Shown in pieces: positions 10,389-64,000 of a stretch of DNA of 64,000 nucleotides. The notes under the pieces are model-generated. The model saw nothing but the letters and a program-made list of their open reading frames with translations, did not search any database and was not told the origin of the DNA. Within the stretch, counting starts at the first letter, position 1; each line of letters opens with the position of its first letter. This DNA comes from Tricharina praecox (lineage: Eukaryota). The position numbers were made by a program, and so were the translations under genes. The DNA lies in contig NW_026250406.1 in assembly GCF_024521635.1 (NCBI RefSeq), positions 1 through 64,000 of the forward strand, read 5' to 3'.

Positions 10389-10558
10389 TAGTAGTAGTGG
10401 TAGTAGTAGAAGTAGTAGCAGTAGCAGTAGCAGTAGCAGTAGCAGTAGCAGTAGCAGTAGCAGTGGCAGTAGCAGTAGCAGTAGCAGTAGCAGTAGCAGT
10501 AGCAGTAGCAGTAGCAGTAGCAGTAGCAGTAGCAGTAGAGTAGTAGTAGTAGTAGTAG
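10389..10558. repeat. Compound microsatellite (AGT)n/(AGCAGT)n
   Basis: Directly visible; it explains the poly-L, (AT)n and (YC)n ORFs in the track. Confidence 0.95.
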
Positions 10559-15411: not shown

Positions 15412-18400
15412 ATGTCTCCTTGGCCCCAATTAGAAAGGTTGAAGGCGCGTTGGTCACAGAAAGTGCGGTCGGGTCCGCGATCGGATGAGCACACCAGTGG
15501 CACCGGGAACAAGCAACAGATTCGAACCGGGAACGAGGATCACAAGCGGTCCGGAAACCAGCACCAGAATGTAGCCGGCGACGAGCACCAGCGTCCAACC
15601 GGGAATGAGCACGAGAACCATCTAGATGTTAGTAATCCACGGGCGGAGATCCGAATTGACTTACTTTTGCTAGAGGGACCCGGACAGTTGCTAACGGTGG
15701 TTCACACAGCCGATACTGGAGCGATTTGACTCCGACAGCATCTCTCAGAATGCTTCTGGCAGTCCGAACATCGGTCGAATCGCCAACATCGCCAACACCT
15801 CTACCGCAGACACCACCAGAGATAGCGTGAACGTGACGACAGACGCCTCACGCAGCTACAAGGACTCAAAGCACAACGAACTCGTGCACCCACAATTCGA
15901 TGGGCCCGTAGGAATAGGTACGTCAGCCTGTTATGTTCTACGACTAGGCATCATTTTGACTGATACGGACTGTCTCTATTTAGGAAATACAACGATCTAC
16001 TACATCCCGCCACCTGGCCTTGCCGCAAACGCTCAAACCCGGGAAGACTTGGAAACTTTTGGTACGTAGAGGAAGCTGTAATGCGATTTCAATAGCTTAC
16101 GTGGACCGTGTCACACAGCCGCTGTGTACTGCGCTCATGGCGCCGCATTCAACTCGCGGGGTTCGGATCACGAGCCTACATGCTTGGCAGAAACTCGAGT
16201 CGATCTCCTCGCCGACATAGTGAGCTGGTCAGACACGCCCGACAATGCGTGCATATTCTGGTTGAATGGAATGGCGGGTACTGGAAAGTCCACTATAGCG
16301 CGTACGGTCGCTCGCAACTGGGCAAAGAAGCAACGACTTGGTGCGAGTTTCTTTTTCTCCAAAGGTCAAGGTGACCGGGCCCATGCTTCCAAATTCTTCA
16401 CTACTCTCGCATACCAGCTTGCGTATTCGCAGCCCAGTCTTGCGTTTAGTATCCACAAGGCTATATGCGACCGACCCGATATCCCGCGGCAAACCCTACG
16501 AGAGCAGTGGAAACATCTCATCCTTGAACCGCTTTCTCGGCTGGGTGAAGGTGTATCCTCTCAACCACAGTCGTTGATGCTGGTCATTGATGCGTTGGAC
16601 GAATGCGATGACGAAGAAGACACCGGACTGATACTTCAAATCCTTTCCGAGGCAACTCTCCTCAAAAGCTCGGTGCGTTTGTTGGTATTCGTCACAAGCA
16701 GACCGGAAACCCCGATCCGCCACGGTTTCGTCAAAATACGGAAGGCTGTATATCAACACTTCATTCTCCATGAAATCCCCAACAACATAGTCGATGCCGA
16801 TATATCCAGTTTCCTCCACCACGAATTAAACGAAATCAGGCAATGTCGCCGGTACTTACCCGAACCTTGGCCCGACGAGCAAAGTGTGGGGCGTCTCGTG
16901 CGGAAAGCTGGGGGACTATTCATCTACGCTTCCACAGTATGCAGATTCATCAGGGATAAGGAGCGCTCTCCACAGAAATGTCTCGCCCTAGTATTGGACG
17001 ACAGCAATGAACACGGAACGTCGTCAACCTTGCGGCAACTCGATTTGATGTACCTGAAGATTATACGATACGCAGTCCAAGTTCGAGGTCAGGCGTCGTC
17101 GACCTCAGAAGAGCGACTTTCGCAACGGTTCAGGCAGATCGTCGGATCTATTGTGGTATCAAACGAAGCATTGACTGTTGGTGCCCTATCTGCTCTTTTA
17201 AACATGCAACCGTACGATGTGGACCGAACAGTAGAATCTCTGGGTTCTATATTGCGTTATCCCGAATTCGATGAAACCCCCATTAAGCTCCTACATCCGT
17301 CTTTCCGCGACTTCCTACTTGACAACCGGAGGTGCAACGATCCCCGGTTCAGCATCATTGCGGATAACGCACACAGGGAACTTGCGATGAGGTGCCTGCA
17401 GCTCATGTCACGCCATCTCAAGCAGGATGTGTGCTCCTTAAAGCTCCCTGGTAGCCTCATCGAGGAGATCGATCCTCGGATAGTGCAGCCTTGTCTTCCG
17501 GAAGAGGTTCAGTATGCCTGCAGGTACTGGGTCGATCATCTCCAGCGAAGTGAAACCATACTCCACGACAGCGAGCCACTTCACGACCAAGTGCATACTT
17601 TCCTCAAAGAACATTTCCTTCACTGGATGGAGGCACTGAGCCTGATGCGGAATATGCATGACGGCATTCTCATGGTCAAGGCCATTGCCTCCATGCTCAG
17701 GGTGAGTACTCCAGCCTGTTGATGTTCTGTTTTTCGGATTTGCCGTCGAGTACATTCAGCAGATTCCAGTGCATGGAATTTGCAGAAACTCGGAAGGCAA
17801 AAGTCGCCAAATCGAGGTTATCGGTGTATGATGAAAGCGGACTGTTCGTCAATGACCTTATCGCTCCAGCAGCGGAAGGTGTGACTGCTGCCACGGAATT
17901 TTGCTGACTTTACTTTAGCTGAAGCCTTCCAGTGCCAACTATTCGTTGCAAGCAATGGCTCATGACGCAGTCCGATTTATGCTACATTTCGGATCAATCA
18001 TCGAGATTGCACCTCTCCAACTGTATTCCTCAGCTCTGTCCTTTAGCCCGGGGCGGAGCTTACTGAAGGACCAATTTCGTCATGAAATCCCGGACTGGAT
18101 TGTGGAAGTGGCACTACCGGTTCCCCAGGATTGGGGCGCGTCGCTGCAGGTACTGGGAGGACATTCAGCCATGATCGGAGCGCTGGCTTTCTCGTTTGAC
18201 GGCAAGCTGCTGGCATCGGCATCGGGCGATAGAACCGTCCGGCTCTGGAATCCCGCGACGGGAACCTGCCGCGCCACTCTTGAGGGCCATTCAAAGGGTG
18301 TCAGTGCAGTGGCATTCTCGCCCGACGGCAAGCTGCTGGCATCGGCATCGGACGACAAAACCGTCCGGCTCTGGGATCCCGCGACGAGAACCTGCCGCGC

Positions 18401-20147
18401 CACTCTTGAGGGCCATTCGGATTGCGTCAATGCAGTGGCATTCTCGCCCGACGGCAAGCTGCTGGCATCGGCATCGGCTGACACAACCGTCCGGCTCTGG
18501 GATCCCGCGACGGGAACCTGCCGCGCCACTCTGGAGGGCCATTCAGGATGGGTCAGTGCAGTGGCATTCTCGCCCGACGGCAAGCTGCTGGCATCGGCAT
18601 CAGCTGACACAACCGTCCGGCTCTGGGATCCCGCGACGGGAACCTGCCGCGCCACTCTTGAGGGCCATTCGCGTTTGGTCAGTGCAGTGGCATTCTCGCC
18701 CGACGGCAAGCTGCTGGCATCGGCATCGGACGACGAAACCGTCCGGCTCTGGGATCCCGCGACGAGAACCTGCCGCGCCACTCTTGAGGGCCATTCGGAT
18801 TGGGTCAGGGCAGTGGCATTCTCGCCCGACGGCAAGCTGCTGGCATCGGCATCGGCTGACACAACCGTCCGGCTCTGGGATCCCGCGACGGGAACCTGCC
18901 GCGCCACTCTTGAGGGCCATTCGAAATGGGTCAGTGCAGTGGCATTCTCGCCCGACGGCAAGCTGCTGGCATCGGCATCTATTGACACAACCGTCCGGCT
19001 CTGGGATCCCGCGACGGGAACCTGCCGCGCCACTCTTGAGGGCCATTCGCAATGGGTCAGTGCAGTGGCATTCTCGCACGACGGCAAGCTGCTGGCATCG
19101 GCATCGTACGACACAACCGTCCGGCTCTGGGATCCCGCGACGGGAACCTGCCGCGCCACTCTTGAGGGCCATTCGCAATGTGTCAGTGCAGTGGCATTCT
19201 CGCACGACGGCAAGCTGCTGGCATCGGCATCGTACGACAAAACCGTCCGGCTCTGGGATCCCGCGACGGGAACCTGCCGCGCCACTCTTGAGGGCCATTC
19301 AAAGGGTGTCAGGGCAGTGGCATTCTCGCCCGACGGCAAGCTGCTGGCATCGGCATCGGCTGACACAACCGTCCGGCTCTGGGATCCCGCGACGGGAACC
19401 TGCCGCGCCACTCTTGAGGGTCATTCGGATTGGGTCAATGCAGTGGCATTCTCGCCCGACGGCAAGCTGCTGGCATCGGCATCTATTGACACAACCGTCC
19501 GGCTCTGGGATCCCGCGACGGGAACCTGCCGCGCCACTCTTGAGGGCCATTCAAAGGGTGTCAGGGCAGTGGCATTCTCGCCCGACGGCAAGCTGCTGGC
19601 ATCGGCATCGGCTGACACAACCGTCCGGCTCTGGGATCCCGCGACGGGAACCTGCCGCGCCACTCTTGAGGGTCATTCGGATTGGGTCAATGCAGTGGCA
19701 TTCTCGCCCGACGGCAAGCTGCTGGCATCGGCATCTATTGACACAACCGTCCGGCTCTGGGATCCCGCGACGGGAACCTGCCGCGCCACTCTTGAGGGCC
19801 ATTCGGATTTTGTCAGGGCTGTGGCATTCTCTTTTGATGGCAAGGGGCTCGTATTAACATTGGCCGATAAAGCTGCCAAGTTCTACGAAATTTCTGCACA
19901 GAATAGCAATTTGGAAGTGAAGCCGGGAGCGGTCTCGTATCCAGAGCTCATGTTGAGCGCAAGTAAAGACTGGATATACTCGGGCGGCCGCAGACTGCTT
20001 TACCTTCCCCATGACTATTTCACTTGCTGGTTCGCCGTCAAAAACAATACAATTGCTCTCGGGCAAAGCTCTGGGACAGTTTGTTTCCTTACCTTTGATT
20101 TGGAATTGGTTCCTTTCGGTGAGCTCTCCAAGGCGAATTTATTCTGA
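15412..20147 (+). CDS. NACHT-WD40 NLR-like protein (HET-E/NWD-like), gene A
   Basis: Spliced model with introns at about 15628-15709, 15918-15983, about 16063-16118 and 17702-17918. NACHT with CLAETRVDLL, WLNGMAGTGKSTIARTVA, LVIDALDEC, FVTSRPE, LHPSFRDFL, QYACRYW; then APLQLYSSAL and 14 WD40 repeats (last one degenerate); stop at 20147. Confidence 0.92.
15481..15624 (+). repeat. Six degenerate 24-bp coding repeats in exon 1 of gene A
   Basis: Translation: SDEHTSGT GNKQQIRT GNEDHKRS GNQHQNVA GDEHQRPT GNEHENHL. Confidence 0.75.
18153..19845 (+). repeat. 126-bp WD40 tandem array (13 near-identical units plus 1 degenerate)
   Basis: Unit LEGHSxxVxAVAFS[PH]DGKLLASASxDxTVRLWDPATGTCRAT, nearly invariant at the DNA level outside the x codons. 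Confidence 0.97.
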
Positions 20148-32463: not shown

Positions 32464-35400
32464 TTATGCAATCCCGTCCAGATCAAGTTTCACGAACCAA
32501 ACCCTACCTGATTGACACCCGAGAGCAACAACGTTATTGTATACTGCGAAAACGTGCGGCCGGAGATCAGAAGGAGGGAGAAGCAATTTTTGCTTTCCCA
32601 AGGTTACCCAGCCCCCACTCAAACTCAGTATACTCTGTGAACTCGTCCCCAGATTAAACCCAATATCAGTACCAGGAGCGACCTCCATGAGTGCTTCACA
32701 CCTGTTAAAATGCAGAACAATAGGAATGAATGGATTAGAGACCGCCACGGTGTTCACTGTTGAAAGGATTTCCTCGACATCGAAGCAGTGGACGGTATTG
32801 TCCCAAGATGTTACTAGAAGGAGCTTGCCATCGGGCGAGAATGCCACTGCCCTGACACCCTTTGAATGGCCCTCAAGAGTGGCGCGGCAGGTTCCCGTCG
32901 CGGGATCCCAGAGCCGGACGGTTGTGTCGTCCGATGCCGATGCCAGCAGCTTGCCGTCGGGCGAGAATGCCACTGCCCTGACCCAATCCGAATGACCCTC
33001 AAGAGTGGCGCGGCAGGTTCCCGTCGCGGGATCCCAGAGCCGGACGGTTTTGTCGTACGATGCCGATGCCAGCAGCTTGCCGTCAAACGAGAATGCCACT
33101 GCATTGACGCAATCCGAATGGCCCTCAAGAGTGGCGCGGCAGGTTCCCGTCGCGGGATCCCAGAGCCGGACGGTTTTGTCGTACGATGCCGATGCCAGCA
33201 GCTTGCCGTCGGGCGAGAATGCCACTGCATTGACGAAACGCGAATGGCCCTCAAGAGTGGCGCGGCAGGTTCCCGTCGCGGGATCCCAGAGCCGGACGGT
33301 TTCGTCGTACGATGCCGATGCCAGCAGCTTGCCGTCGTGTGAGAATGCCACTGCCCAGACCAAATCCGAATGACCCTCAAGAGTGGCGCGGCAGGTTCCC
33401 GTCGCGGGATCCCAGAGCCGGACGGTTTTGTCGTACGATGCCGATGCCAGCAGCTTGCCGTCGTGCGAGAATGCCACTGCACTGACACATTGCGAATGGC
33501 CCTCAAGAGTGGCGCGGCAGGTTCCCGTCGCGGGATCCCAGAGCCGGACGGTTGTGTCAGCCGATGCCGATGCCAGCAGCTTGCCGTCGTGCGAGAATGC
33601 CACTGCACTGACCCATTGCGAATGGCCCTCAAGAGTGGCGCGGCAGGTTCCCGTCGCGGGATCCCAGAGCCGGACGGTTCTGTCGTCCGATGCTGATGCC
33701 AGCAGCTTGCCGTCGTGCGAGAATGCCACTGCATTGACGCAATCCGAATGGCCCTCAAGAGTGGCGCGGCAGGTTCCCGTCGCGGGATCCCAGAGCCGGA
33801 CGGTTCTGTCGTCCGATGCTGATGCCAGCAGCTTGCCGTCGTGCGAGAATGCCACTGCATTGACGCAATCCGAATGGCCCTCAAGAGTGGCGCGGCAGGT
33901 TCCCGTCGCGGGATCCCAGAGCCGGACGGTTCTGTCGTTCGATGCTGATGCCAGCAGCTTGCCGTCGTGCGAGAATGCCACTGCACTGACCCATTGCGAA
34001 TGGCCCTCAAGAGTGGCGCGGCAGGTTCCCGTCGCGGGATCCCAGAGCCGGACGGTTGTGTCAGCCGATGCCGATGCCAGCAGCTTGCCGTCGTGCGAGA
34101 ATGCCACTGCACTGACCCATTTCGAATGGCCCTCAAGAGTGGCGCGGCAGGTTCCCGTCGCGGGATCCCAGAGCCGGACGGTTGTGTCAGCCGATGCCGA
34201 TGCCAGCAGCTTGCCGTCGGGCGAGAATGCCACTGCCCCGACCCTATCCCAATGACCCTCAAGAGTGGCGCGGCAGGTTCCCGTCGTGGGATCCCAGAGC
34301 CGGACGGTTTTGTCGGCCGATGCCGATGCCAGCAGCTTGCCGTCGTGCGAGAATGCCACTGCACTGACACCCCCTGAATGGCCCTCCAGTACCTGCATCA
34401 AGGAATCCCAGTCCTCAGGGACACCCGTAAGGTCTATTATCCAACTCGGGACACTGTCTGCAAAATGATTCCTGAGGATGGCTCCTGATGGGCTGAAAGG
34501 TAGAGCTGCACAGTATAGTTGGAGAGGCGCAATCTCGATGATCGCTCTGGTATTGAGAATGAATCGCACTGCGTCACGCGACATCGCGCGTAAGCTATGA
34601 TTGGCTTTGGGCTGGACGTCAAAGTCAGCATGTTTCGGAACAAGATTCACACCAATTTGCCTGTTGGAGGTAAGCCATCGTCGCTAAAGAGCGAAGCGTG
34701 TATCCACTCCAAATGCCCATCCGCTGAAACCAACGGTACTTTCGTGGATGCTATATACTGGAAGCCCACTTGCGACTGACGACTGACAGACGATGAAGGT
34801 CCAGAAACAGGGAACGCTCGAAAATATTCGGATGGCTCACCGTAAGCATTGAATCTAAAAGCTTAACCATGAGAACAGCGTCATGCATAATACCCATCAG
34901 ACTCCAAACCTCGAACAGGTGGAGAAGGTGTTGCTTGAGGAAAGCGTGGACCAGGTCGTGCAGTGTTCCGCCGTCGCATAGCGTGACGTTACTATGCCGA
35001 ATATGATCCACCCAGTAGCGGCACGCGTACTGCACCTCTTGGGGAAGACAACGCCGTATTGTCGAAGGATCCACTTCACTGGTAAGAGAACCCGGATGTC
35101 GTAAAGAGCATACGTCCTCCTTTAGAGATCTTGACATGAGCGTGAGACAGCTCAATGCAAGGTCCTTGTGAGCATCGTTTCCAACTATGCTGAAATGTGG
35201 ATCCTGACATCTCTGGTCGTCCAAGAGAAAGTCCCGGAACGACAGGTGCAGAAGCCGTATCGGAGATTCTTGACTTCCTGAAACCGAAAACGTCAATACA
35301 GAACTCAGTGAGTCCAATGTTTGCTCCACCTCCGTTAGTTGAGTGCCCAAGAGTTGTGCAAGAGCCCTAGCAGTCAAGGAGTCGGATAGTATCACAATCG

Positions 35401-38400
35401 AACCGACGATCCGCCTGAATCGTTGTAACAGTATCTGTTGCGTCTGGGGCTCACGGCCTTTGATAACCGCATGATCCAAGACCGTCGTATATATCAGGTC
35501 GAGTTGCTTTGTCGACGATCCGTCTTCCACACTTTCTTCCAATACCGAAGCGAGACGATCCTGAGGAACATTGTCCTTGCACCCAATGAATCGGCAGACC
35601 GTTGTAGCGTATATGAACAGTCCATCCGCTTTCTGGACGAGACGGTGGAGCTTTTCGCGATCTGGCCATTCATTCGACAACCGGCGCCGCTTCTGGATCC
35701 TGGATAACTCGTGGAGGAGGAAAACATATATATCTTGATCGATTATTGCGTTGGCAACATTGTGAAGGACAAACTCCTGCCGTGTAGCTTCCTGTATATC
35801 TTGGAACCCGTAGCGAACCGGGGTTTCTGGCCTACTGGTGACAAATATCCGCAATCGCACAGGGGTGAGAGATTTCGCCTGGGAGAGAAGTCCAAGGATC
35901 TGCTCAACATCTGCTTCATCATCGCATTCATCCAATGCATCGATAACAAGTATCAACGATTGCATTTGAGACGGCTGCGACAATGGTTCCAAGATCAGAT
36001 GTTTCCACTGCTCGCTCATGTTCTTCCGGGGGATGTCGGGGTAGGCGCATATAGCCTCGCGAACAGCAGGGGCAAGGCCGGACCGCGCCAGCTGGTAGGC
36101 GATTGTAGTGAAGAATCTCGAAGCACGCGCCAGATATCCTTCACCTCTCGAAAAGAAGAAACTCGCCCCGAGCCGTCTTTCACTAGCCCACTTGCCGGCG
36201 ACCGTACGAGCGATAGTAGACTTTCCAGTACCAGCCATTCCATTCAACCAGAAGATGCATGCACCATCCGAGGCCTCTGACCATTCCATAATTTTCTCCA
36301 GGAGGTCGACTCGCGTATATTCTAAGCATTTTGATTTGCCGTTCGAACCACACGAATCGAACGGGGCGTCGTTGGCGCAGTACTCGGCGGCTATTCACGC
36401 AAATCAGTCGATGAAAACCACAAGACTGTTTCCTAACATACCAAAACTTCTTAACATCTCTTCCTTTTGAGCATCTCTCCCGGAGTCAGGTTCTGGGGGG
36501 TGGTAATGGTTCGTATATGTATCTCCTGCAAACACTTTGTCAGCCAACGGCCCATTGAGTTGCCCGGTCCCGTCTAGAATAGAACGACGAACCAAATGTT
36601 ACACTCCCTTGGATTTTCGGGTAGTTCAACTCGTTGTGCTTCGCGTTTTTGTAAGCACGAGAGCTTCCCGTGAGAATATTGCTGATTTGTGTTGTCGTGT
36701 GCGAGCTGCTGTTCGAGCTGCAGCGGCTGGCTTGGTGACCGATGCTCGGAAGGTTGGACGGATTTTGTGAGGCTACTGCCTCGATATGAAACCCATCTTG
36801 CTCTACTACCATCTACACAAATCACCGTTAGCCGCCGTCAGGATCTTTGATATCGGGAATGCATGCTGACCACCACACCTCCTTGAAGGTTCTTCTGCTC
36901 GTTCCTGGAGGGATTCATTGAGGCTACTGCCTCGATATCGAACGCATCTTGCTCTACCATCATCTGCACAAATCACCGTTAGTCGCCGTCATGATCTTTG
37001 ATATCGGGAATGCATGCTGACCACCACCCCCCCCTGAAAGTTTTCCTGCTGTTTCCCGGATGGATTCGATAGTTCGTCACATGGCGAAACCGACTGCTCG
37101 TCTTCGGATCGGTGCGCCTGCATGTCGTTCCTTCTTTTCAGAACATTCCGGACAGATTCTGAAAGCCTTTCCCTGACTATCACGTAGTCATGGCCGCAGC
37201 TGTCGGGGAGCTCTACCGAGTGATCGACGTCGATCGTGACGTGCTGATGCTTGGCCTCGTTCGGTAGGCCACGGGTCGCTCCTTTCCGCGCGATAGCTCC
37301 AATCAATTCGCCACTTGCCATCCAGCCGACATCTGGTAGTGTGTTCACGGCTTCGGCGCCACCGATTTCGAAAAACGAGACGATTTGAAAACCATCGAGG
37401 TTCGATTTGGTCGCTCTTAAGAAACAATCGTAAGAGGACCTCCAGAATTCGCAGCCTTCCGAAAGGTTATGGATGACGTGTACATCATTCTGGTCCCGTA
37501 TCAATGTCCTCAAGCGTTGGGGGTCAACACCTCGGTCTGGCACTCCGAAGAAAAAGAGGCCGACACACAAGCTCAAGTTCGCTTGATCGCTATCGCCACC
37601 GACCGAGAGTCGAGATGCATCCGCGAGTGCCTGCAAACAATGAGCATCGATCGCGTCCACGGGAAGCGCCACCGTATTGGGTACCTGTTTGATCACCAAA
37701 CGCCCGAGGCTGTGGCCGATGAAGATTACAGGGCGGCCGCGTTCCTGCAGACATCCGTCAACTCTGGAGCCCGCGGTTGGGTTTCTGAGACACACACGTA
37801 CATTCGCTTCCGTCCGCGCTAGGCATATACTCTGCAAGAGGGATCTCGCATAGGTTTGGAGGGTAGGGATGGTGACAATGTTGTCCCGCAGACCCATGTC
37901 GTAGCCGAACGTGAGAACCCTCATGTGCTCTCCGATTTCGATCGGGAATGCCTCCCGTAGCCACATCCTCGGTTGGCCCCGTACGCTCCGTGATCCGTAT
38001 GCACGACCAGCGAGGCCCGCGACAGCGAAAACACTAGCAGTTCTTTTCAGCACAAACTTTACGAACGAACAGAGGGGGAGAGGGAGGGAGGTCCATACTT
38101 TACTGCGGGCTTTTGCGCGCCGAACAAGCTCGGAGTTCCGAGAAAGTAACTTGCTCCCGGGAAATAATCGGAAAGATTCGCAGGATTTCCTTTCGGAAAA
38201 CCAACGGTTGCCATGGCGCCGCTCAACGAGAGCACGAAACCATCGCTTCCGAGCATCATCTTCAAAAGGGTCTTCAACTCATCCTCCGTGACGCCCAGCG
38301 GAATGGAGCGAATTCGGAGTGTCCGGAAGCGAGTCGGCGGCTGGCGTGGCCGGTTCGAGTGCGATGCGGCACCCGCAGGCTCACGGACCGGTGCGCAGCG

Positions 38401-55235: not shown

Positions 55236-58200
55236 ATGTCTAGTGGCGCTGATATCAACGCTGGAGACACCGCCCACAACGCCAACACGATGAACACCGC
55301 TACGCCAAATACTCGTGCCTACAATGCCTCCAAGCACAACGAATTCAATGAACCGGTTTTCCATGGGCAGACAACATTCGGTACGCCACTGCGCTGTGTT
55401 CCGATGTGATATCGCGTGGGGCTGACCTTGGGTAGGAGATACGACCAACTACCACTTCGGCAGAAAAAAAGACGCACAGACACGCGAGTTCTTGGAGAAT
55501 CTGGGTGAGCGATCCCGTCAGAAATGCAGGTTAGCATGAGTACCGATGGCTGACTTCCGATTTCTCTGGCAACAGTAGCTACGAAGGTCGATTGGTCCAT
55601 CCTTTCGCGTCAGTTGTCGGTTGTCGACCAAGGCACCACCTACCGATCCACGTACGTACCTGTCGACCAAAACTCGCCGGATTTCCCTTGGGTCACTAAG
55701 AACATCGACTTCACGAAATGGGAGTCGGACGAGAAGCAGCAAGCTCTGTGGTTATCTGGAGCCTGTGACGCCGGTACGAAGGAGGTGTCTTCCCAAGTCA
55801 TATACAACGCCAAGAAGAAAGCCACTCAGTCGAACGGTTGTGTCTTGTACTTTTTCTGCGCAACCGCAACAGAATCTCGGGATTCGATTGCCACCGTCTT
55901 CGTCCATACGCTGCTCCATCAGATTGTCGGTTTTTCGGGCGATGAGACGGCTCAAGCTATCACCACAACTTTCCTTACGTCACTCTTGGACGGTCATATC
56001 CGGCGAAGTTTGTCGGGCTTCAAGAAGGACGATCCACTGGTTAAAACTGTGGAAAGGATCCTAGACGCTCCCTCATATGACCTTCACATCGCGTTGATCA
56101 ATGCGCTTGCGAAAGCGGGACCCCAGCATCTATCGCTCATCATCGATGGGATCAGCATTGCGGCAATGAAGGGTGATGTGTTCGTTCGGAACGTTTCCCT
56201 CCTGGTGAACCATATGATAGCTGCGGGGGCTGTGGGGGCTGTGGGGGCTACAAGGTTCAAGGCTTTACTCACAAGCTCTCAGTACTCTGAGCTCAAGGGA
56301 TTTCTAGGCGATCTACCGTCCATCCAGTTTCGCCAAGAGCGAGAAGGTTGTTTGTCCATGATTCCAGAGACTGAACAGCAGCTGATTAGCCTGGCAACCC
56401 AGAGATTCTTCGTCTTCTGCAAGACCACGACGGTACACGATATGGAAATATCACCCGACAGCATGGCGGTTCGCTTGAGTGGTTATGGCAGAATGCAGAA
56501 TACCGGAATTGGGAGAAATCGACGACGTCAAAGCTCCTATACATCGAGGGGAAGCCTGGTAGTGGAAAAAGCACTCTTGTGAAATATTTCGAGAGCAACC
56601 TAGCAGAGAAGGTACCAGATTCGACGTCAGCTACTGTGGCCTACTACTTCTACACCCTTCGAGGCACCACCGAGGAGGCCAAGCATGCGAACATGCTGCG
56701 GGCCATTCTGCACAGTATTCTTACGCAGGACGAGTCCGTTTTCCATCATTTCCAGACCGCATTCCGGCACTTTCGATATGCCAAAGAATGGCCATACGAA
56801 TCTCTCAAATCGATCCTATCCTCTCTCGTGGATCATATTTCACCGAAACCGCTCTACCTTATTCTTGACGCAATGGACGAATCCATGGAAGAAGACAGAA
56901 CCGAGATTGTGGAGCTACTCTGCAAGCTGTGTTCAGCAAAAGGCTTTCGTGTAAAGGCGTTTGTTGCCAGTCGCCCGGTTGCCGACCTCAATCTCCTGTT
57001 CACAGAATGGCGTCATTCGATGCATGTCATCAGGCTTCAGCACGAGAACTACGGCGATATCTGCACGTTTACCGATACTTTTCTGACGAAACTCGGGTTA
57101 TCCGAACAGATCCTTCTGGATACTGGTAAATATATCAAAGCCAATGCCGAGGGTGTTTTTGTGTGGGTTCACCTGGTTAAAGCCGAATTAACCCGTTTGC
57201 GATCAACTGGCCTAAGCGATATGCAATTGAGTCATCAACTCAAGTGTCTTCCTCGCAAACTGGAAGAGTTCTACAAGCATATGCTCGACAGGCTGGAGCG
57301 GGAGGGCAGAGATGATGAGGTTCAGGACGGAATAACGCTCGTTCAGTTCGTTCTATTCTCCTCTCGTCCCCTGAATGTTGTCGAACTGCAACATGTTCTT
57401 GCTTTCCAGGCTATGGACTGCGATTCCTCGGTCACTCCTCCACATATTAAGTTCCAGCGACACCTGAGCGACGCCATCGAGGCGAGGATTGCACACTGCG
57501 GCGGCAACTTCTTAGACATTACGGGTAATCCATTGTCGAAATGCAACACGACCGGCGTTTAATGATCTGTGCAGCAGATGGAACCGTTCAACTGATGCAT
57601 CAAACCGCCCGCGAGTTTTTTCTCCAAATTAAACAACATAAACCCGATTCAAAATTCTATCTGAGCAGCCAGAAAACCCATGGCGCAATCGCTACCACTT
57701 CGGTTCAGTATCTGATGCTCTGTTTGGGAAACCCAGAAACCTCCATGAAAGATACCCTGTCAGATACCAAGGGTTGGGGTTCGAACGAGTTTCAACGTTA
57801 TGCCAAATACCTCAACGAGTGGCCGTTGATCACTTACGCAATATTCAATGTCTACTATCATCTAGGGTTGTGCGATACGGGGAAAAGGATTTTACATCTC
57901 GTTAAGAAACTTATCAAAAAGCTGACTAGCATTCCAGGGACCGCATCTCTTGGGAGATTGGTGGCTAGACAACATAAAAAGAAGAAATCTATCCTCACTT
58001 CCATACTAGACATGGCAAGCAGGACGCCTCTACGAAAAATTCCCCCTGAGAGTGCCTCCGACGACTTCGTCCACAGGGCTCTAGATGCTGCCGCCGAGTT
58101 AGATATGCTCCGAGTCTTCGAGTTGCTGCGGTCTACCCACATGCATACACTGGACGAGGTTCTACTGATTTCATGTGTCAGGAAGCGGCTGACAGCTGCC

Positions 58201-61200
58201 TCCAGAGAACTGATCAAAGGAGTCGAAAATATCGACGGTGTAGACGTGGCGGGGAAGTCGGCACTACATCACGCAGTCGAGAACGGGGACCTGACAATAG
58301 CTAGACTGCTGAAAGATGCACAGGCCTCTTCGGGGCTCCGCGATAATCATGGGAACACGCCCGTAGACATAGCCGTTAAGTTGTAGTGAGCTCTCCCTGA
58401 TTACCAGACAAAAGATCGAGTGGCCGGCGTTTAATGTGATTAAACAGGGCTAATTTGACGTTCCAACAGTGGGTGGGTGTCTCCACGGGACCACGAAGCT
58501 CTAACTAATAGTGTCATCACCGATGCCTAATTTCCCGAATCCCAGCTTGTGAGTCTGCAAGCCAATGAAATTTGGTGCCACAATAGGTTTACGTCCCTAA
58601 CGGTTTGCTACAGCTAGTGAGGCTCCCCGCAATCCTTATGTGGCTCCCACGACAGACGAACGATCCTGACGGTTTGGTGCAGCATGTGAGGCTCCCCGCA
58701 ATCCTTATGTGGCTCCCACGACAGACGAACGATCCTGACGGTTTGGTGCAGCCGGTGAGGCTCCCCGCAATCCTTATGTGGCTCCCACGACAGACGAACG
58801 ATCCTGACGGTGTGATACAGGTTGTGAGGCTCCCCGCAATCCTTATGTGGCTCCCACGACAGACGAACGATCCTGACGGTTTGGTGCAGGGAGTGAGGCT
58901 CCCCGCAATCCTTATGTGGCTCCCACGACAGACGAACGATCCTGACGGTGTGATACAGCTTGTGAGGCTCCCCGCAATCCTTATGTGGCTCCCACGACAG
59001 ACGAACGATCCTGACGGTGTGATACAGCGAGTGAGGCTCCCCGCAATCCTTATGTGGCTCCCACGACAGACGAACGATCCTGACGGTTTGGTGCAGCATG
59101 TGAGGCTCCCCGCAATCCTTATGAGGCTCCCACGACAGACGAACGATCCTGACGGTGTGATACAGGTTGTGAGGCTCCCCGCAATCCTTATGTGGCTCCC
59201 ACGACAGACGAACGATCCTGACGGTTTGGTGCAGGGAGTGAGGCTCCCCGCAATCCTTATGTGGCTCCCACGACAGACGAACGATCCTGACGGTGTGATA
59301 CAGCGAGTGAGGCTCCCCGCAATCCTTATGTGGCTCCCACGACAGACGAACGATCCTGACGGTGTGATACAGGTTGTGAGGCTCCCCGCAATCCTTATGT
59401 GGCTCCCACGACAGACGAACGATCCTGACGGTTTGGTGCAGGGAGTGAGGCTCCCCGCAATCCTTATGTGGCTCCCACGACAGACGAACGATCCTGACGG
59501 TGTGATACAGCTTGTGAGGCTCCCCGCAATCCTTATGTGGCTCCCACGACAGACGAACGATCCTGACGGTTTGGTGCAGCGAGTGAGGCTCCCCGCAATC
59601 CTTATGTGGCTCCCACGACAGACGAACGATCCTGACGGTTTGGTGCAGCCGGTGAGGCTCCCCGCAATCCTTATGTGGCTCCCACGACAGACGAACGATC
59701 CTGACGGTGTGATACAGCGAGTGAGGCTCCCCGCAATCCTTATGTGGCTCCCACGACAGACGAACGATCCTGACGGTTTGGTGCAGCATGTGAGGCTCCC
59801 CGCAATCCTTATGTGGCTCCCACGACAGACGAACGATCCTGACGGTGTGATACAGCGAGTGAGGCTCCCCGCAATCCTTATGTGGCTCCCACGACAGACG
59901 AACGATCCTGACGGTTTGGTGCAGCATGTGAGGCTCCCCGCAATCCTTATGAGGCTCCCACGACAGACGAACGATCCTGACGGTGTGATACAGGTTGTGA
60001 GGCTCCCCGCAATCCTTATGTGGCTCCCACGACAGACGAACGATCCTGACGGTTTGGTGCAGCCGGTGAGGCTCCCCGCAATCCTTATGTGGCTCCCACG
60101 ACAGACGAACGATCCTGACGGTTTGGTGCAGCCGGTGAGGCTCCCCGCAATCCTTATGTGGCTCCCACGACAGACGAACGATCCTGACGGTTTGGTGCAG
60201 CGGGTGAGGCTCCCCGCAATCCTTATGTGGCTCCCACGACAGACGAACGATCCTGACGGTTTGGTGCAGCGAGTGAGGCTCCCCGCAATCCTTATGTGGC
60301 TCCCACGACAGACGAACGATCCTGACGGTTTGGTGCAGCCGGTGAGGCTCCCCGCAATCCTTATGTGGCTCCCACGACAGACGAACGATCCTGACGGTGT
60401 GATACAGCGAGTGAGGCTCCCCGCAATCCTTATGTGGCTCCCACGACAGACGAACGATCCTGACGGTTTGGTGCAGCCGGTGAGGCTCCCCGCAATCCTT
60501 ATGTGGCTCCCACGACAGACGAACGATCCTGACGGTTTGGTGCAGCGGGTGAGGCTCCCCGCAATCCTTATGTGGCTCCCACGACAGACGAACGATCCTG
60601 ACGGTTTGGTGCAGCCGGTGAGGCTCCCCGCAATCCTTATGTGGCTCCCACGACAGACGAACGATCCTGACGGTGTGATACAGCCTGTGAGGCTCCCCGC
60701 AATCCTTATGTGGCTCCCACGACAGACGAACGATCCTGACGGTTTGGTGCAGCATGTGAGGCTCCCCGCAATCCTTATGTGGCTCCCACGACAGACGAAC
60801 GATCCTGACGGTTTGGTGCAGCATGTGATGCTCCCCGCAATCCTTATGTGGCTTCTACGACAGACGCGTGATCCTAACTGTTTGGTATAGCTTGTTAGCC
60901 TTCCCGCAAATGATAGGTGCTTCCATGACAGACGGGCAATCCTAACAGTTTGGTGCAGGGAGTGAGGCTCCCCGCAATCCTTATGTGGCTCCCACGACAG
61001 ACGAACGATCCTGACGGTTTGGTGCAGCCAGTCAGTCCTCCGCAAACGACGTGTGCCCCACCAGATTTACGTGCCTGACGGTTCGGTATAGCAAAAGGTA
61101 ACTCCCAGCAAATGAAGTATGGCTCCCACGATTGATGTACATGCCTGACGGTTTGGTACAGCAAGATGTAAACTCCCAGCAAATCATGTCTGCTGCCAAT

Positions 61201-62195
61201 ATACACGAGGGAGCCTGACTATTTGATACGACAGCATGTTAGTCTTCACAACCTACCAGCGTCATCACATTCAATTAGTCGCTAATTACAGACAAACCGC
61301 TAAATTGGACAGAAAGTGACTCTTCTCCCGACTGTGCAGTGATTCTCCTAGTAATATCAAGCCTTAATTTGGTCCGATAGACGGTAATGCTCCGTTCAAA
61401 ATCGCCAATGGATAGGTGAATAACTAACCTATTGGTCCGATCTGATAGCGCGTGAGGCTTCCAAAACTTCGGATGAGCCGTTAGTGCGTCACTAATTTCA
61501 TCCCGATGCCTTAATCCGACAGCGAGTGAGTCTCTTGGGCAATTCGTTCCCATGATCCGTTCATTAAATTGGCCATATGCTAAATGAAAAGACTGTGCGT
61601 TCCACCTCCTACTTTCTTCAACATCGCTAACCCTAACTCGATTGTCCCTTTACCAACAGCCCGTGCGTATTACACACTGTTCTATTCCACGTTTTCTAGG
61701 ATCGATCCTAACTAATTTCACTCCATTGCCGGACTAAATAGGCCGTATGTGTCATCTCACAATGACGTAGTTTTCCATCGCTAACGTCAGCTGAACGGCG
61801 CATTCGACAGCATGTAGGTTGCCCTTACTTACCAACGTTGGAGGGCAAATCAACTCAGTACTATTCTGTGATGCTAATACGGCCTATACATCTTCAGATT
61901 ACAGCTACTCATATGGGATGTCGTGACTCCGAATGAACCGCCACAGGATATTGAACAGTAAGGTTAGGTTTAGGAGACCAGAGAACTGGGCATAAATCCA
62001 CATTGCTAACTGCCCTATGGCTGACCTCATCTTGTGATTTTCAGATTTCTCAAGTCGAAAGTGCTACAGGTGTGGGTGGATTTAGAAAGTGCGTGCTGTG
62101 AGTCGTTTGGTTTTCAGGATGGCAGGTTGGCTAGTTGGCGCTCTTTTCCTATGGCGGGTTTCTCCCACAGGGTTTACCGCATAGGTTTTTACTGA
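55236..62195 (+). CDS. Tandem-NACHT - ankyrin NLR-like protein with microexon cassette, gene C
   Basis: ATG at 55236; introns 55381-55435, 55505-55575, about 56348-56403 and about 57526-57574. Degenerate NACHT1 (LWLSGACDAGTK, LIIDGI), intact NACHT2 (YIEGKPGSGKST, LILDAMDES, FVASRP, AEGVFVWV, VQLMHQTAREF), ankyrin repeats (GKSALHHAV, GNTPVDIAV). Then microexon ladder 58386-61897, exon 61898-61957 (ILQLLIWD..), intron 61958-62044 and a terminal exon ending at TGA 62195. The 3' end is the least certain part. Confidence 0.8.
58386..61897 (+). other. Ladder of 50 introns separated by 49 microexons (47 of 3 nt, 2 of 6 nt)
   Basis: Every unit reads GT donor..branch-like motif (mostly CTRAC/CTAAT)..AG followed by exactly 3 or 6 nt before the next GT donor. 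The pattern persists in non-repetitive units on both sides of the tandem array, and the spliced product is stop-free. Confidence 0.88.
58617..61030 (+). repeat. 69-bp tandem array (35 units; units 1-32 and 35 near-identical) = 66-nt intron + 3-nt exon
   Basis: GTGAGGCTCCCCGCAATCCTTATGTGGCTCCCACGACAGACGAACGATCCTGACGG[TTTGGTGCAG|TGTGATACAG]NNN; starts at 58617, 58686 ... 60756 with exact 69-bp spacing. More diverged homologous units continue to about 61240. Confidence 0.97.
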
Positions 62196-64000
62196 GGCCA
62201 ACGGGAAGTTTCATGTTGGTCGGTACTGTTACGGATGTTCGGAGTAGGGAGGAGATTTTGATTTATCTGTCCTGTAACTTGTGTAATCGTCGTCATTTTT
62301 AGGCTTTTTTTTGGCTGGTAAATCACCGTGACTGGTCCACAGCATTTCGAACTCTCTCCTCACAACACATGATATTCGGCGGCAATACCTAGCTCCACCG
62401 CCTATTCTCATTTGCACTCGGTCGCGGGATCTGTATTTCTTAGTTTTGGAGGGAGGGCCTGCAAGGAACGCACCTTGCACTCGCTACTGCGTGATACCAG
62501 TCGCCACTCGAAGTGGGCGGGCATGGTATGATACTGAGGAGCTTCGAAGACTCGGTATTCATGGCTGGGAGTATGGTTGTGGGAAAAGGACTTGGGAGGG
62601 CAAAATTGCGGCTGTTCGGGAGCACCTACATTGTCGCGGCGAGTCCGAGCAGAGCTTCCTCCCAGGCCCATTCATCAATCATAACTCGGACTAGATAGCA
62701 TTTGATCCGCTACACACTGCAGTACAGGTACGGTTGGGGCCGCATAGGACTGGTCGGTACCGGGACTTTCACCTCAACTGGCCAGGGCGGGCAGGAAAAG
62801 GAGTTCATTGGTTCGCCATAGTCTAGATAGGCTGCATGCGAAATAAAACAGGATGATCTCTCTCTCTCTCTCTCTCGCAGTACAGGTACGGATCAAATCA
62901 ATAGACGACTCGATGATAGGCTGTTGACCGGAGCATTAACGGCAAAGCCGCGACAAACCTCTTACCACCGGGGCGTATGTAACTGAATGGCCCCTCAATT
63001 CTTAGTCCTTCCACTGTTCTGCAACCGACTGAGTCGAACCACAACTGCGTGCAGAAAAATGCTCAGTAAAGTGAACCATGACACAGCATTGCAGACACCC
63101 ATTGGCTTACTCGGACCTAAAGCACGACGAACTAGGCCTACTTTATGCCTTCCACTCATGCGCTAGCGCTCCTACCACCGTATCCTACTGGGCCTAAGTC
63201 GACTCTAATAACTATCCTACATATAAACATCCGTCTATGCCAGCTGCACCGACAACGGTCAGAACTAATAGAGGGATCAGCTGCCGAGCCAGTCTTCGCG
63301 CATTTGCAACTGCCGCGCACCGTGTCCAAGCGGATCGCGGGGCGAGATCGAACCGCGATCCTCCGCCGCCGCGCAGGCGAGACCTGTTTTCCCTGCTGTG
63401 TGCGAATAACACCCCGTGGGCGGCGGAGCCGACAGTCGTTCGCCATGGCAAAATGCACCCTTCGCCCTCGACAGAGACCAGGAGATCGCCGCGGTGAATG
63501 CCAGGATACGGCGAAGCCCCGTGGCATATGCAGGTCTCTCTGCGCACGCCGAACGCATCGCGATGCAGAAACGAGCGGCGGACGTGAATTCTGGCACTGT
63601 GATGGCGGATACGCCTCAGCTTGGATTGCAGTGCACCAGCCTGGATGGCACTTCCTAGCATGTGACGACGTATTCGCATCAGTTTCGGGCGATGGACGAG
63701 ACCCGGAGCGGCAGTCCGGCAGGCCCCGCTGGCCTCGCCAGCGCTTCATCAAACGTGTAATTCGGGCGATTGGAGTCATATCGAGTCCCTACAACAATCG
63801 GCATAAGAGCGGCTGGACGTGGCTACCTCCCCGGGAGATGATCGGATCATCGGAGGAGAAAATGCTGGACGCATGGCGCCGTCTGGGCTTGATCAGGCGG
63901 GTAGAGATGATTGCGGCCGTGGCTGAAAGCCAAAGGAAGCACAACCCGAAAGCAAGACCCGGAAGCATCGAGGAGTTGTTCATTCCGGATTAGAAGATAC

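Follow-up and report, generated by a model that had tools for sequence, protein, structure and literature searches.

Organization of the locus

The window analyzed here is a stretch of 64,000 nucleotides (nt) of the Tricharina praecox genome (contig NW_026250406.1, positions 1 to 64,000), and our subject is a cassette of very short exons and introns at 58386-61897 on its plus strand. The cassette is the 3' part of one transcribed gene for a NOD-like receptor (NLR) with NACHT and ankyrin (ANK) domains, of the 'nank' type known from truffles. It comprises 50 introns within the coding part and 49 microexons (58470-61813), of which 47 measure 3 nt and two measure 6 nt, and a 51st intron lies behind the stop codon. 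A first-pass annotation, made from the sequence alone, had counted 50 introns, a number that stands for the coding part and falls short by one intron in the 3' untranslated region (UTR). Its assignment of the array to an NLR gene is supported by the continuity of the cassette with the NACHT-ankyrin open reading frame (ORF) and by the NPHP3_N and Ank_2 matches upstream. The structure of the cassette, its splicing and its origin by tandem duplication of intron-plus-microexon units are, in our judgement, highly probable.

The large 5' exons (55614..58385) were recognized from Pfam matches, three-frame reading and the layout of homologues. They correspond to three ORF pieces at 55614-56582, 56579-57562 and 57541-58386. 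At least one ordinary intron interrupts them, at about 57526-57575, and the true start of the gene is further upstream than 55614. The first piece encodes a NACHT-like stretch with a degenerate P-loop (Pfam NPHP3_N, 8.2e-10), the second an intact NACHT domain with the P-loop GKPGSGKST (NPHP3_N, 2.7e-17), and the third ankyrin repeats (Ank_2, 5.8e-7, and Ank_5, 1.5e-6, at residues 221-280 of the ORF 57541-58386). The upstream NACHT-like stretch with the degenerate P-loop spans 55614-56330. Homologues from Trichophaea and Wilcoxina (P0003, P0005 and P0006) show the same layout of two NACHT modules plus ANK, indicating a family feature rather than a local pseudogene fragment. Trichophaea hybrida and Wilcoxina mikolae are the nearest named relatives (46-56% identity over the NACHT part), followed by Morchella (35%), and the homologues carry a precomputed PF05729 NACHT assignment.

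The cassette was delimited by a parse that chains consecutive introns, by repeat analysis and by contigs from public sequencing runs, among which X2 and X5 behave as RNA and X1 is soil DNA. At its 5' edge, the chain parse places three diverged introns (58386-58469, 58473-58545 and 58549-58613), each followed by a 3-nt exon (58470-58472, 58546-58548 and 58614-58616), the last two of which also occur in a loose end of an X2 RNA contig. A homogeneous core follows at 58617..60824, where repeat analysis and X2 contigs define 32 units, each composed of a 66-nt intron and a 3-nt exon (69 bp). The 3' array edge (60825..61030) holds two diverged units with introns at 60825-60890 and 60894-60958 (identity to the core 0.85 and 0.76) and a further unit with the intron 60962-61027 that is identical to the core (1.00) and is again followed by a 3-nt exon. 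From there, the parse and RNA joints give twelve diverged introns of 61-84 nt at 61031..61897, with ten 3-nt and two 6-nt exons between them.

The last coding exon (65 nt, 61898..61962) is bounded by the RNA joints 61813->61898 (X5) and 61963-62044 (X2), and its computed spliced frame ends in a TAA stop at 61959-61961. The intron directly after the stop codon lies in the 3' UTR and measures 82 nt (61963..62044, GT..AG; X2 joint 61960->62043, cut +2, depth 13982), with two minor alternative joints at 61919->62045 (depth 7.4) and 61962->62044 (GT..CA, depth 408). The terminal exon with the remaining 3' UTR (62045..62571) is covered by a 527-nt X2 contig with no deviating letters (depth 4390), and X2 depth drops to 0 in the bin 62587-62697, past this exon.

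At about 62700-62900, just past the 3' end of the gene, lies a short element with a (CT)n run at about 62860-62880, flanked by a repeated 15-mer. Summed X1 depth rises here from about 7 to 396-1423, and dozens of X1 contigs have loose ends at 62810-62821, places at which X2 and X5 show loose ends as well. The element looks like a dispersed repeat or a small mobile element.

Structure and variation of the intron-microexon array

With Tandem Repeats Finder, a single array is obtained at 58596-61028 (period 69, 35.3 copies, 92% matches, 0% indels). Within it, the 32 head-to-tail core units (58617-60824) are in exact register, with introns starting at 58617+69k for k=0..31; a unit is defined as a 66-nt intron plus the 3 nt after it. 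Each unit begins with GTGAGG, has CCTGAC 14 nt before the intron end and closes the intron with CAG, which is the form of a short fungal intron.

Variation across the core units is confined to 7 of the 69 columns, and the other 62 show none. Intron position 25 is T in 30 units and A in two, whereas positions 58, 61 and 63 are split 20 to 12 in full linkage, defining two acceptor haplotypes, TTTGGTGCAG and TGTGATACAG. The remaining three variable columns are those of the microexon itself. The near-invariance of the unit intron claimed in the first-pass annotation is thereby upheld, as are eight states of the 3-nt exon: CCG (7 units), CGA (7), CAT (6), GTT (4), GGA (3), CTT (2), CGG (2) and CCT (1). 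The acceptor haplotypes are linked to particular triplets, again as described, with TTTGGTGCAG upstream of CAT (6), CCG (7), GGA (3), CGG (2) and CGA (2) and TGTGATACAG upstream of GTT (4), CTT (2), CCT (1) and CGA (5), so that only CGA occurs with both.

Larger blocks also recur. The exon order GTT-GGA-CTT-CGA is found at units 3-6 and again at units 11-14, and the T>A variant at position 25 occurs in intron 8 (start 59100) and intron 20 (start 59928) of the core, in both cases with CAT before and GTT after; both features had been noted in the first pass and were recovered here. The variant is confined to the two copies of one 3-unit block. When complete units are compared, there are 10 unit types, and the repeated blocks at that level are three in number and three units long; as many repeated unit triples arose in 98 of 5000 shuffles of the unit order. 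The order of the 10 types shows no simple period above one unit.

Similarity to the core unit decays outward from the array, as had been proposed for the diverged introns that flank it. Introns adjoining the core are 0.67-0.85 identical to the core unit, with a shuffle maximum of 0.64, whereas those farther away are no more similar to it than shuffled sequence. With up to 3 mismatches allowed, the 21-nt 3' end of the unit has 34 copies, all within 58662-61027, whereas 100 shuffles gave none. A dispersed satellite, raised at the outset as a possible refutation, is not indicated within the 64-kb window, where this unit end was found only inside the array at the same mismatch threshold.

The exact 69-bp register, the near-identity of units, the duplicated blocks carrying the T>A variant and the outward gradient of divergence bear out the proposal that the core arose as whole units were duplicated in tandem or exchanged unequally. 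Since the duplicated unit contains an intron, each duplication makes a new intron.

At least 11 substitution steps are required to derive the units from one another, and 7 of them fall in the three microexon sites; with a probability of 3/69 per step, a hand calculation that assumes uniform mutation gives P(>=7/11) ~1e-7. The pattern of the units would fit diversifying selection, and it also fits a 56-nt core homogenized by exchange with a 13-nt variable island carried along. We hold only tentatively that the variability is selected and functional.

Evidence for splicing

Several features of the sequence identify the segments as U2-type introns; the criteria were a length of about 50-150 nt, the terminal dinucleotides GT and AG, and a branch site resembling CTRAY that lies 9-40 nt upstream of the 3' end. 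All 51 segments begin with GT and end with AG, and the spacing between them is always 3 or 6 nt. A [CT]T[AG]A[CT] branch motif lies in range in 17 of the 18 non-core introns of the coding part; the exception (61526-61591) is nevertheless spliced in X2 and X5. Eleven of the 50 coding-part introns, all outside the core, have lengths not divisible by 3. The sequence-only parse chained 11 introns in the non-repetitive 3' flank, compared with at most 3 in 300 shuffles. The same parser also reports chains of 9 and 14 introns inside two WD40 arrays of the window; it is uninformative in periodic DNA, and weight was placed on the non-repetitive flanks only.

Contigs from public runs were compared with positions 60700-64000, that is, the 3' flank starting in the last core units. 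The contigs are Logan assemblies of 31-mers, in which isoforms can be mixed. X7 is the only run recorded as RNA, and none of its contigs matched 60700-64000. X2 and X5 derive from two differently named organisms. Among the joints listed, fourteen skip part of the DNA sequence, all of them in X2 and/or X5, and 12 of the fourteen have GT..AG ends. In contrast, the DNA control X1 shows an unbroken contig of 1510 nt over 61328-62835 with no splice joint. X2 and X5 thus behave as RNA.

The joints match 12 of the 16 introns predicted in 60700-64000, including 61098-61161, 61238-61312, 61384-61448, 61452-61522, 61526-61591, 61595-61659, 61663-61741, 61745-61810 and 61814-61897. They also corrected the parse at one place, where a 134-nt "intron" (61526-61659) was split into 61526-61591, which ends in AAG, and 61595-61659, adding the microexon 61592-61594. 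The letters retained inside joints that span several introns are those of the predicted microexons, namely GA (from GGA), CGC, CCC and CCCGCCCAT, the last of which represents three consecutive microexons in X5. In X2, the joint 60894->61028 with GA between shows both introns removed and the GGA exon kept, and a loose end carries five microexons in a row (ACG CGC CGA ACT CCC). Gaps in the contigs, from which no conclusion is drawn, lie at 60811-60921, 61033-61143 and 61255-61365 in X5 and at 60922-61254 in X1.

Splicing at the 5' edge and in the core is represented in X2 as well. One loose end, its string located at 58525, joins the tail of the intron ending at 58545 to the microexons 58546-58548 and 58614-58616 and to the next microexon, so introns 58549-58613 and 58617-58682 had been removed in that RNA. 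In contigs from the core, two microexons are found joined between unspliced core introns, as CAT+CAT (depth 831 of 10618) and as CCG+CAT (depth 3304 of 32355, 4 contigs). Taken together, most introns of the 3' flank are spliced, some core introns are spliced, and runs of up to seven consecutive microexons are included. The first-pass view that the units are genuine intron-plus-microexon modules agrees with their GT, CTRAY branch site and YAG and with the RNA joints.

A structured RNA within the unit intron is not indicated by the searches made. Rfam gave no match at E<=1 on 58300-62300, and six stretches analyzed for folding showed no sign of a structured RNA or a small nucleolar RNA (snoRNA) in the unit intron, with z-scores against shuffles of +1.3 to +2.9 for five of them and -0.01 for the sixth.

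Several observations weigh against a fully spliced, productive and alternatively spliced cassette. Among the joints listed, none corresponds to four of the 16 introns (those starting at 60825, 61031, 61168 and 61316). Many contigs are only partly spliced, and the summed depth of the core intron in X2 is 42331, compared with 4390 for the terminal exon, so that many transcripts may be unproductive. The contigs speak for individual introns rather than for whole molecules. The RNA status of X2 and X5 in the run labels is itself a guess ('RNA?'), and the reading frame and the link to the ankyrin exon at donor 58386 are deduced from sequence. Alternative splicing is represented by one adjacency, CCG+CAT, a pair that is not adjacent in the exon order of the window; it could equally reflect a strain difference in the array, and no skipping joint is among those listed in the diverged flank.

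Reading frame of the cassette

The ankyrin ORF ends with V-K-L followed by a TAG, whose G is the first base of the donor GTGAGC at 58386. The large exon would accordingly end in TTG TA, which is phase 2, and in this phase, once the 50 introns are removed, no stop is met from the ankyrin exon across the whole cassette until the TAA one base before the last intron. We consider it very likely that the cassette is read in this phase. Because the large ankyrin exon ends in phase 2 before the 58386 donor, a microexon is probably not a codon. The first-pass equation of one exon with one codon therefore has to be amended: residues would straddle neighboring microexons, each taking two letters from the end of one microexon and its third from the start of the following one. 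In phase 2, the core triplets encode only Ile/Met, Phe/Leu, Asp/Glu, Arg, Gly and Leu, and the Ile/Met, Phe/Leu and Asp/Glu toggles are set by C or G as the first letter of the next microexon. C occupies the first position in 34 of the 47 3-nt microexons, which is not decisive for the frame. Retention of an intron would bring a stop within one codon for 43 of the 50 introns.

An alternative phase-0 donor, GTTAAG at 58375, six bases before the ORF end, could be used instead. However, it would remove the A-V-K-L of the last ankyrin repeat, which is conserved in all ankyrin-bearing homologues and is kept only in the phase-2 reading. The ends of homologue models, compared by eye (n=32), also point to the phase-2 donor at 58386: seven end on that Leu, five run 1-7 residues further, two run 16-26 residues further and 18 end elsewhere. 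One of the five (P0020) runs on as K-K-L-Y, in agreement with the Tyr that TA|T would encode here.

Among the database models of the homologues P0001-P0021, many stop at the same Leu, in the last ankyrin repeat, or shortly past it. Gene predictors, unable to model 3-nt exons, may have truncated the real C-termini of these proteins. Since many Trichophaea and Wilcoxina models end at the residue of the first donor, the cassette may be an old, family-wide feature of Pezizales NLRs. For genome annotation, this means that the sensor ends of a whole family of Pezizales NLRs are possibly absent from protein databases, because predictors end the proteins at the last large exon, as for the seven of the 32 models that stop on this Leu.

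Alternative explanations

The alternative that survives best accepts the same structure and denies it adaptive meaning; we consider it rather unlikely, though a serious contender. It holds that a neutral, perhaps harmful minisatellite expanded in a gene that already had microexons, that the diverse exons are remnants of a few older units, that the identical cores reflect recent turnover and that most transcripts run into premature stops. The abundance of partly spliced contigs, the high summed depth of the core intron and the immediate stops caused by most retained introns are in line with this explanation, as is the small number of unit types (10), in which the acceptor haplotype is tightly tied to the exon as would be expected from a few shuffled founder units. 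However, the hand calculation above places at least 7 of the 11 substitution steps in 3 of the 69 sites, a bias that neutral turnover of whole units does not predict, and both the terminal exon and fully joined runs of microexons are well represented in two organisms. In addition, passages citing Iotti et al. 2012 describe an expanded Tuber family with the same gene architecture, and the conserved model ends of Pyronemataceae homologues suggest that it is present there as well.

An assembly artefact, in which the copy number or order of units in the long perfect array was invented, appears very unlikely. The 2.2 kb of near-identical 69-mers are beyond the resolution of short reads, and the contig comparison covered the 3' flank only. 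Against this, contigs of X2, X5 and X1 contain unit junctions, several exon variants and the two edges of the array, and the array has an ordered variation of 10 unit types, unlike a collapsed or padded repeat. X1 represents a different strain: compared with the window, it has a TA insertion at 61424 inside the intron 61384-61448 (a 2-nt insertion common to X1 and X5) and an A>G change at 60823 inside a microexon. The last core unit and the first diverged unit are nevertheless joined in X1 as well, on a 99-nt contig with a depth of 109, compared with 6.7 for single-copy sequence. By rough arithmetic, this depth, which is not a copy number, is compatible with tens of core copies in a strain other than that of the window.

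Even less probable is a series of mobile, introner-like copies inserted repeatedly into a once-continuous exon. Identical introns between differing exon letters are what insertions into existing coding sequence would leave, but thirty-odd independent insertions at every third base are implausible. Moreover, particular neighboring exons recur together with the acceptor haplotype and the rare T>A variant in multi-unit blocks, identity decays gradually at the array edges, and no copy occurs elsewhere in the 64-kb window.

A 69-bp unit that encodes a 23-residue protein repeat, within a plus-frame ORF (58605-60890) joined to the ankyrin exon by one intron and with hypervariable residues, is hardly credible: although the frame is open for 761 codons, 69 is divisible by 3 and the variation falls on three 'codons' as it does in WD40 arrays of fungal NLRs (the window itself holds two), the explanation is contradicted by RNA joints that remove the units, the frame closes at 60890 once the units diverge, the units in the flanks differ in length by non-multiples of 3 and yet keep GT, branch site, YAG and the 3-nt spacing, the ORF has no Pfam match, no protein scored at E<=0.001 among 7999 candidates of 418-1332 residues, and three open frames out of six are unremarkable for a 23-codon unit.

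Separately, the minus-strand ORF gave Pfam matches to MtrB, EGF_BRNP and DGOK; none of the matched stretches passes alone, and these matches were treated as repeat-inflated noise.

A proposed mechanism of diversification

Intron-plus-microexon units spliced from an NLR transcript suggest how the tail of the receptor could vary. The 66-nt introns and 3-nt exons would act together as a 69-bp minisatellite, in which unequal exchange or replication slippage between identical intron cores would duplicate, delete and reorder whole units. Each unit would add exactly 3 nt to the mRNA, so the frame would never be lost. The homology that drives recombination would itself be spliced out, and the tail could thereby be rebuilt residue by residue without a repeat in the protein. 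Reordering or skipping a unit would alter the residues at the new junction, through the Ile/Met, Phe/Leu and Asp/Glu toggles.

At the transcript level, the introns would be taken out one by one through intron definition. A donor paired with a later acceptor would skip microexons in frame, whereas a retained intron would lead to a near-immediate stop, and one allele could give tails that differ in both length and sequence. We infer that such alternative splicing may be regulated. By analogy with the Tuber family and with the conserved repeat arrays of fungal NLRs, a likely role for the product would be that of a rapidly variable C-terminal sensor tail.

A bolder version, which we regard as rather doubtful, couples two layers of diversification of the NLR sensor tail, namely germline exchange of units and transcript-level microexon skipping and intron retention. 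In the germline layer, single residues would be added, removed and reordered without any protein-level repeat, which could be called 'HIC by proxy' after the highly conserved (HIC) repeat arrays of fungal NLRs. In the transcript layer, skipping in phase 2 would create codons that are nowhere present as three adjacent bases in the DNA, and retention would set the length of the tail.

Whatever its use, the cassette is informative about splicing. Its 49 consecutive, RNA-supported microexons test the limits of intron definition, with each donor only 3 nt from the preceding acceptor. The appearance of dozens of new introns in one gene via tandem duplication also bears on the question of intron gain.

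Repeats elsewhere in the window

Two arrays of a 126-bp unit lie at 18184-19831 on the plus strand and at 32822-34386 on the minus strand, with 13.1 and 12.4 copies and 92-94% matches. Their consensus units look like reverse complements of each other, and the unit reads as a WD40 repeat, of the classical highly conserved type found in arrays of fungal NLR genes. The window would thus be rich in NLR genes and would hold two different diversification systems, both based on repeats, next to each other. Other repeats are a 6/12/18-bp array of the AGTAGC type spanning about 170 bp (10389-10558) and a 151-bp unit present twice (36768-37067).

Comparison with known systems

Introns can be gained through tandem genomic duplication and through introners, both of which turn duplicated DNA with splice signals into many near-identical introns. 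The cassette differs from these in that its unit is a pre-existing intron together with a 3-nt exon and that the copies are restricted to one gene, in tandem rather than dispersed.

Tens of tandemly duplicated units of an intron plus a short exon within one transcript are also described for the SNHG14 host gene, where passages of two reports give 29 and 48 tandem introns with SNORD116 and SNORD115, respectively (PMC11608373, 10.1101/2023.10.24.563766). There, however, the introns carry snoRNAs and the exons are non-coding, as far as these passages describe them, whereas the present array has no Rfam match and its units fold worse than shuffles (z = +1.4 to +2.9). The micro-exon genes (MEGs) of Schistosoma, as outlined in passages of one source, contain runs of tiny exons, the smallest of 3 bp, that preserve the reading frame and whose skipping gives protein variants, with introns of up to 5 kb (PMC10526429). 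Their long introns are not arranged in tandem and their products, according to the same source, are secreted parasite proteins, unlike the NLR tail considered here.

Closer parallels are found among fungal NLRs themselves. Paoletti (2007) and Chevanne (2010) are reportedly the original papers on the HIC repeat arrays of these receptors. In HIC arrays of WD40, ANK and TPR repeats, unequal crossing-over shuffles repeats that vary at a few hypervariable positions, according to passages of two papers (PMC9815663, PMC10197012). The cassette resembles them, as there described, in that almost identical units lie in tandem at the sensor end of an NLR, vary at few positions and show signs of having been reshuffled. 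In contrast to HIC arrays, its repeated DNA is intronic, with 66 of 69 bases spliced out and 3 of 69 coding, and its product is not a protein repeat.

A scan of metagenomes with the ankyrin ORF gave 173 stretches that matched the pattern, two of which (loci L001 and L002) passed tblastn; both are related at the ankyrin level only (41-46% identity over about 40 residues), and no related cassette was recovered from them. Full-text literature searches for tandem arrays of introns and microexons in fungi, which covered articles without their supplements, returned nothing beyond citations of Iotti et al. 2012. Two protein searches, which scored only candidates sharing most words, gave 23 and 11 hits with no Tuber protein among them.

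The closest known system is the 'nank' family of NACHT-ANK genes in Tuber melanosporum, which citing passages describe as expanded and as containing dozens of mini-exons of 3 bp that undergo alternative splicing (Iotti et al. 2012, Fungal Biol 116:261; PMC4986451, PMC3689799, PMC10197012, PMC9815663, PMC13449251). To the extent that these passages describe it, the two share a NACHT domain with ankyrin repeats C-terminal to it, tens of 3-nt exons in the C-terminal, sensor-side part, splicing of the microexons into the mRNA and occurrence in a fungus of the Pezizales. They differ in that the nearest named relatives of the present gene belong to the Pyronemataceae and not to Tuber; Trichophaea and Tuber are both members of the Pezizales, in different families. 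The wider idea is therefore not new, having been published for the Tuber melanosporum nank genes (Iotti et al. 2012), whereas the homogenized intron array and the HIC-like concerted evolution in intronic repeats may be new details, when compared with that work as represented in the passages that cite it. The cassette would link two routes of fungal NLR diversification that have been described separately, unequal crossing-over in repeats and alternative splicing of 3-bp exons.

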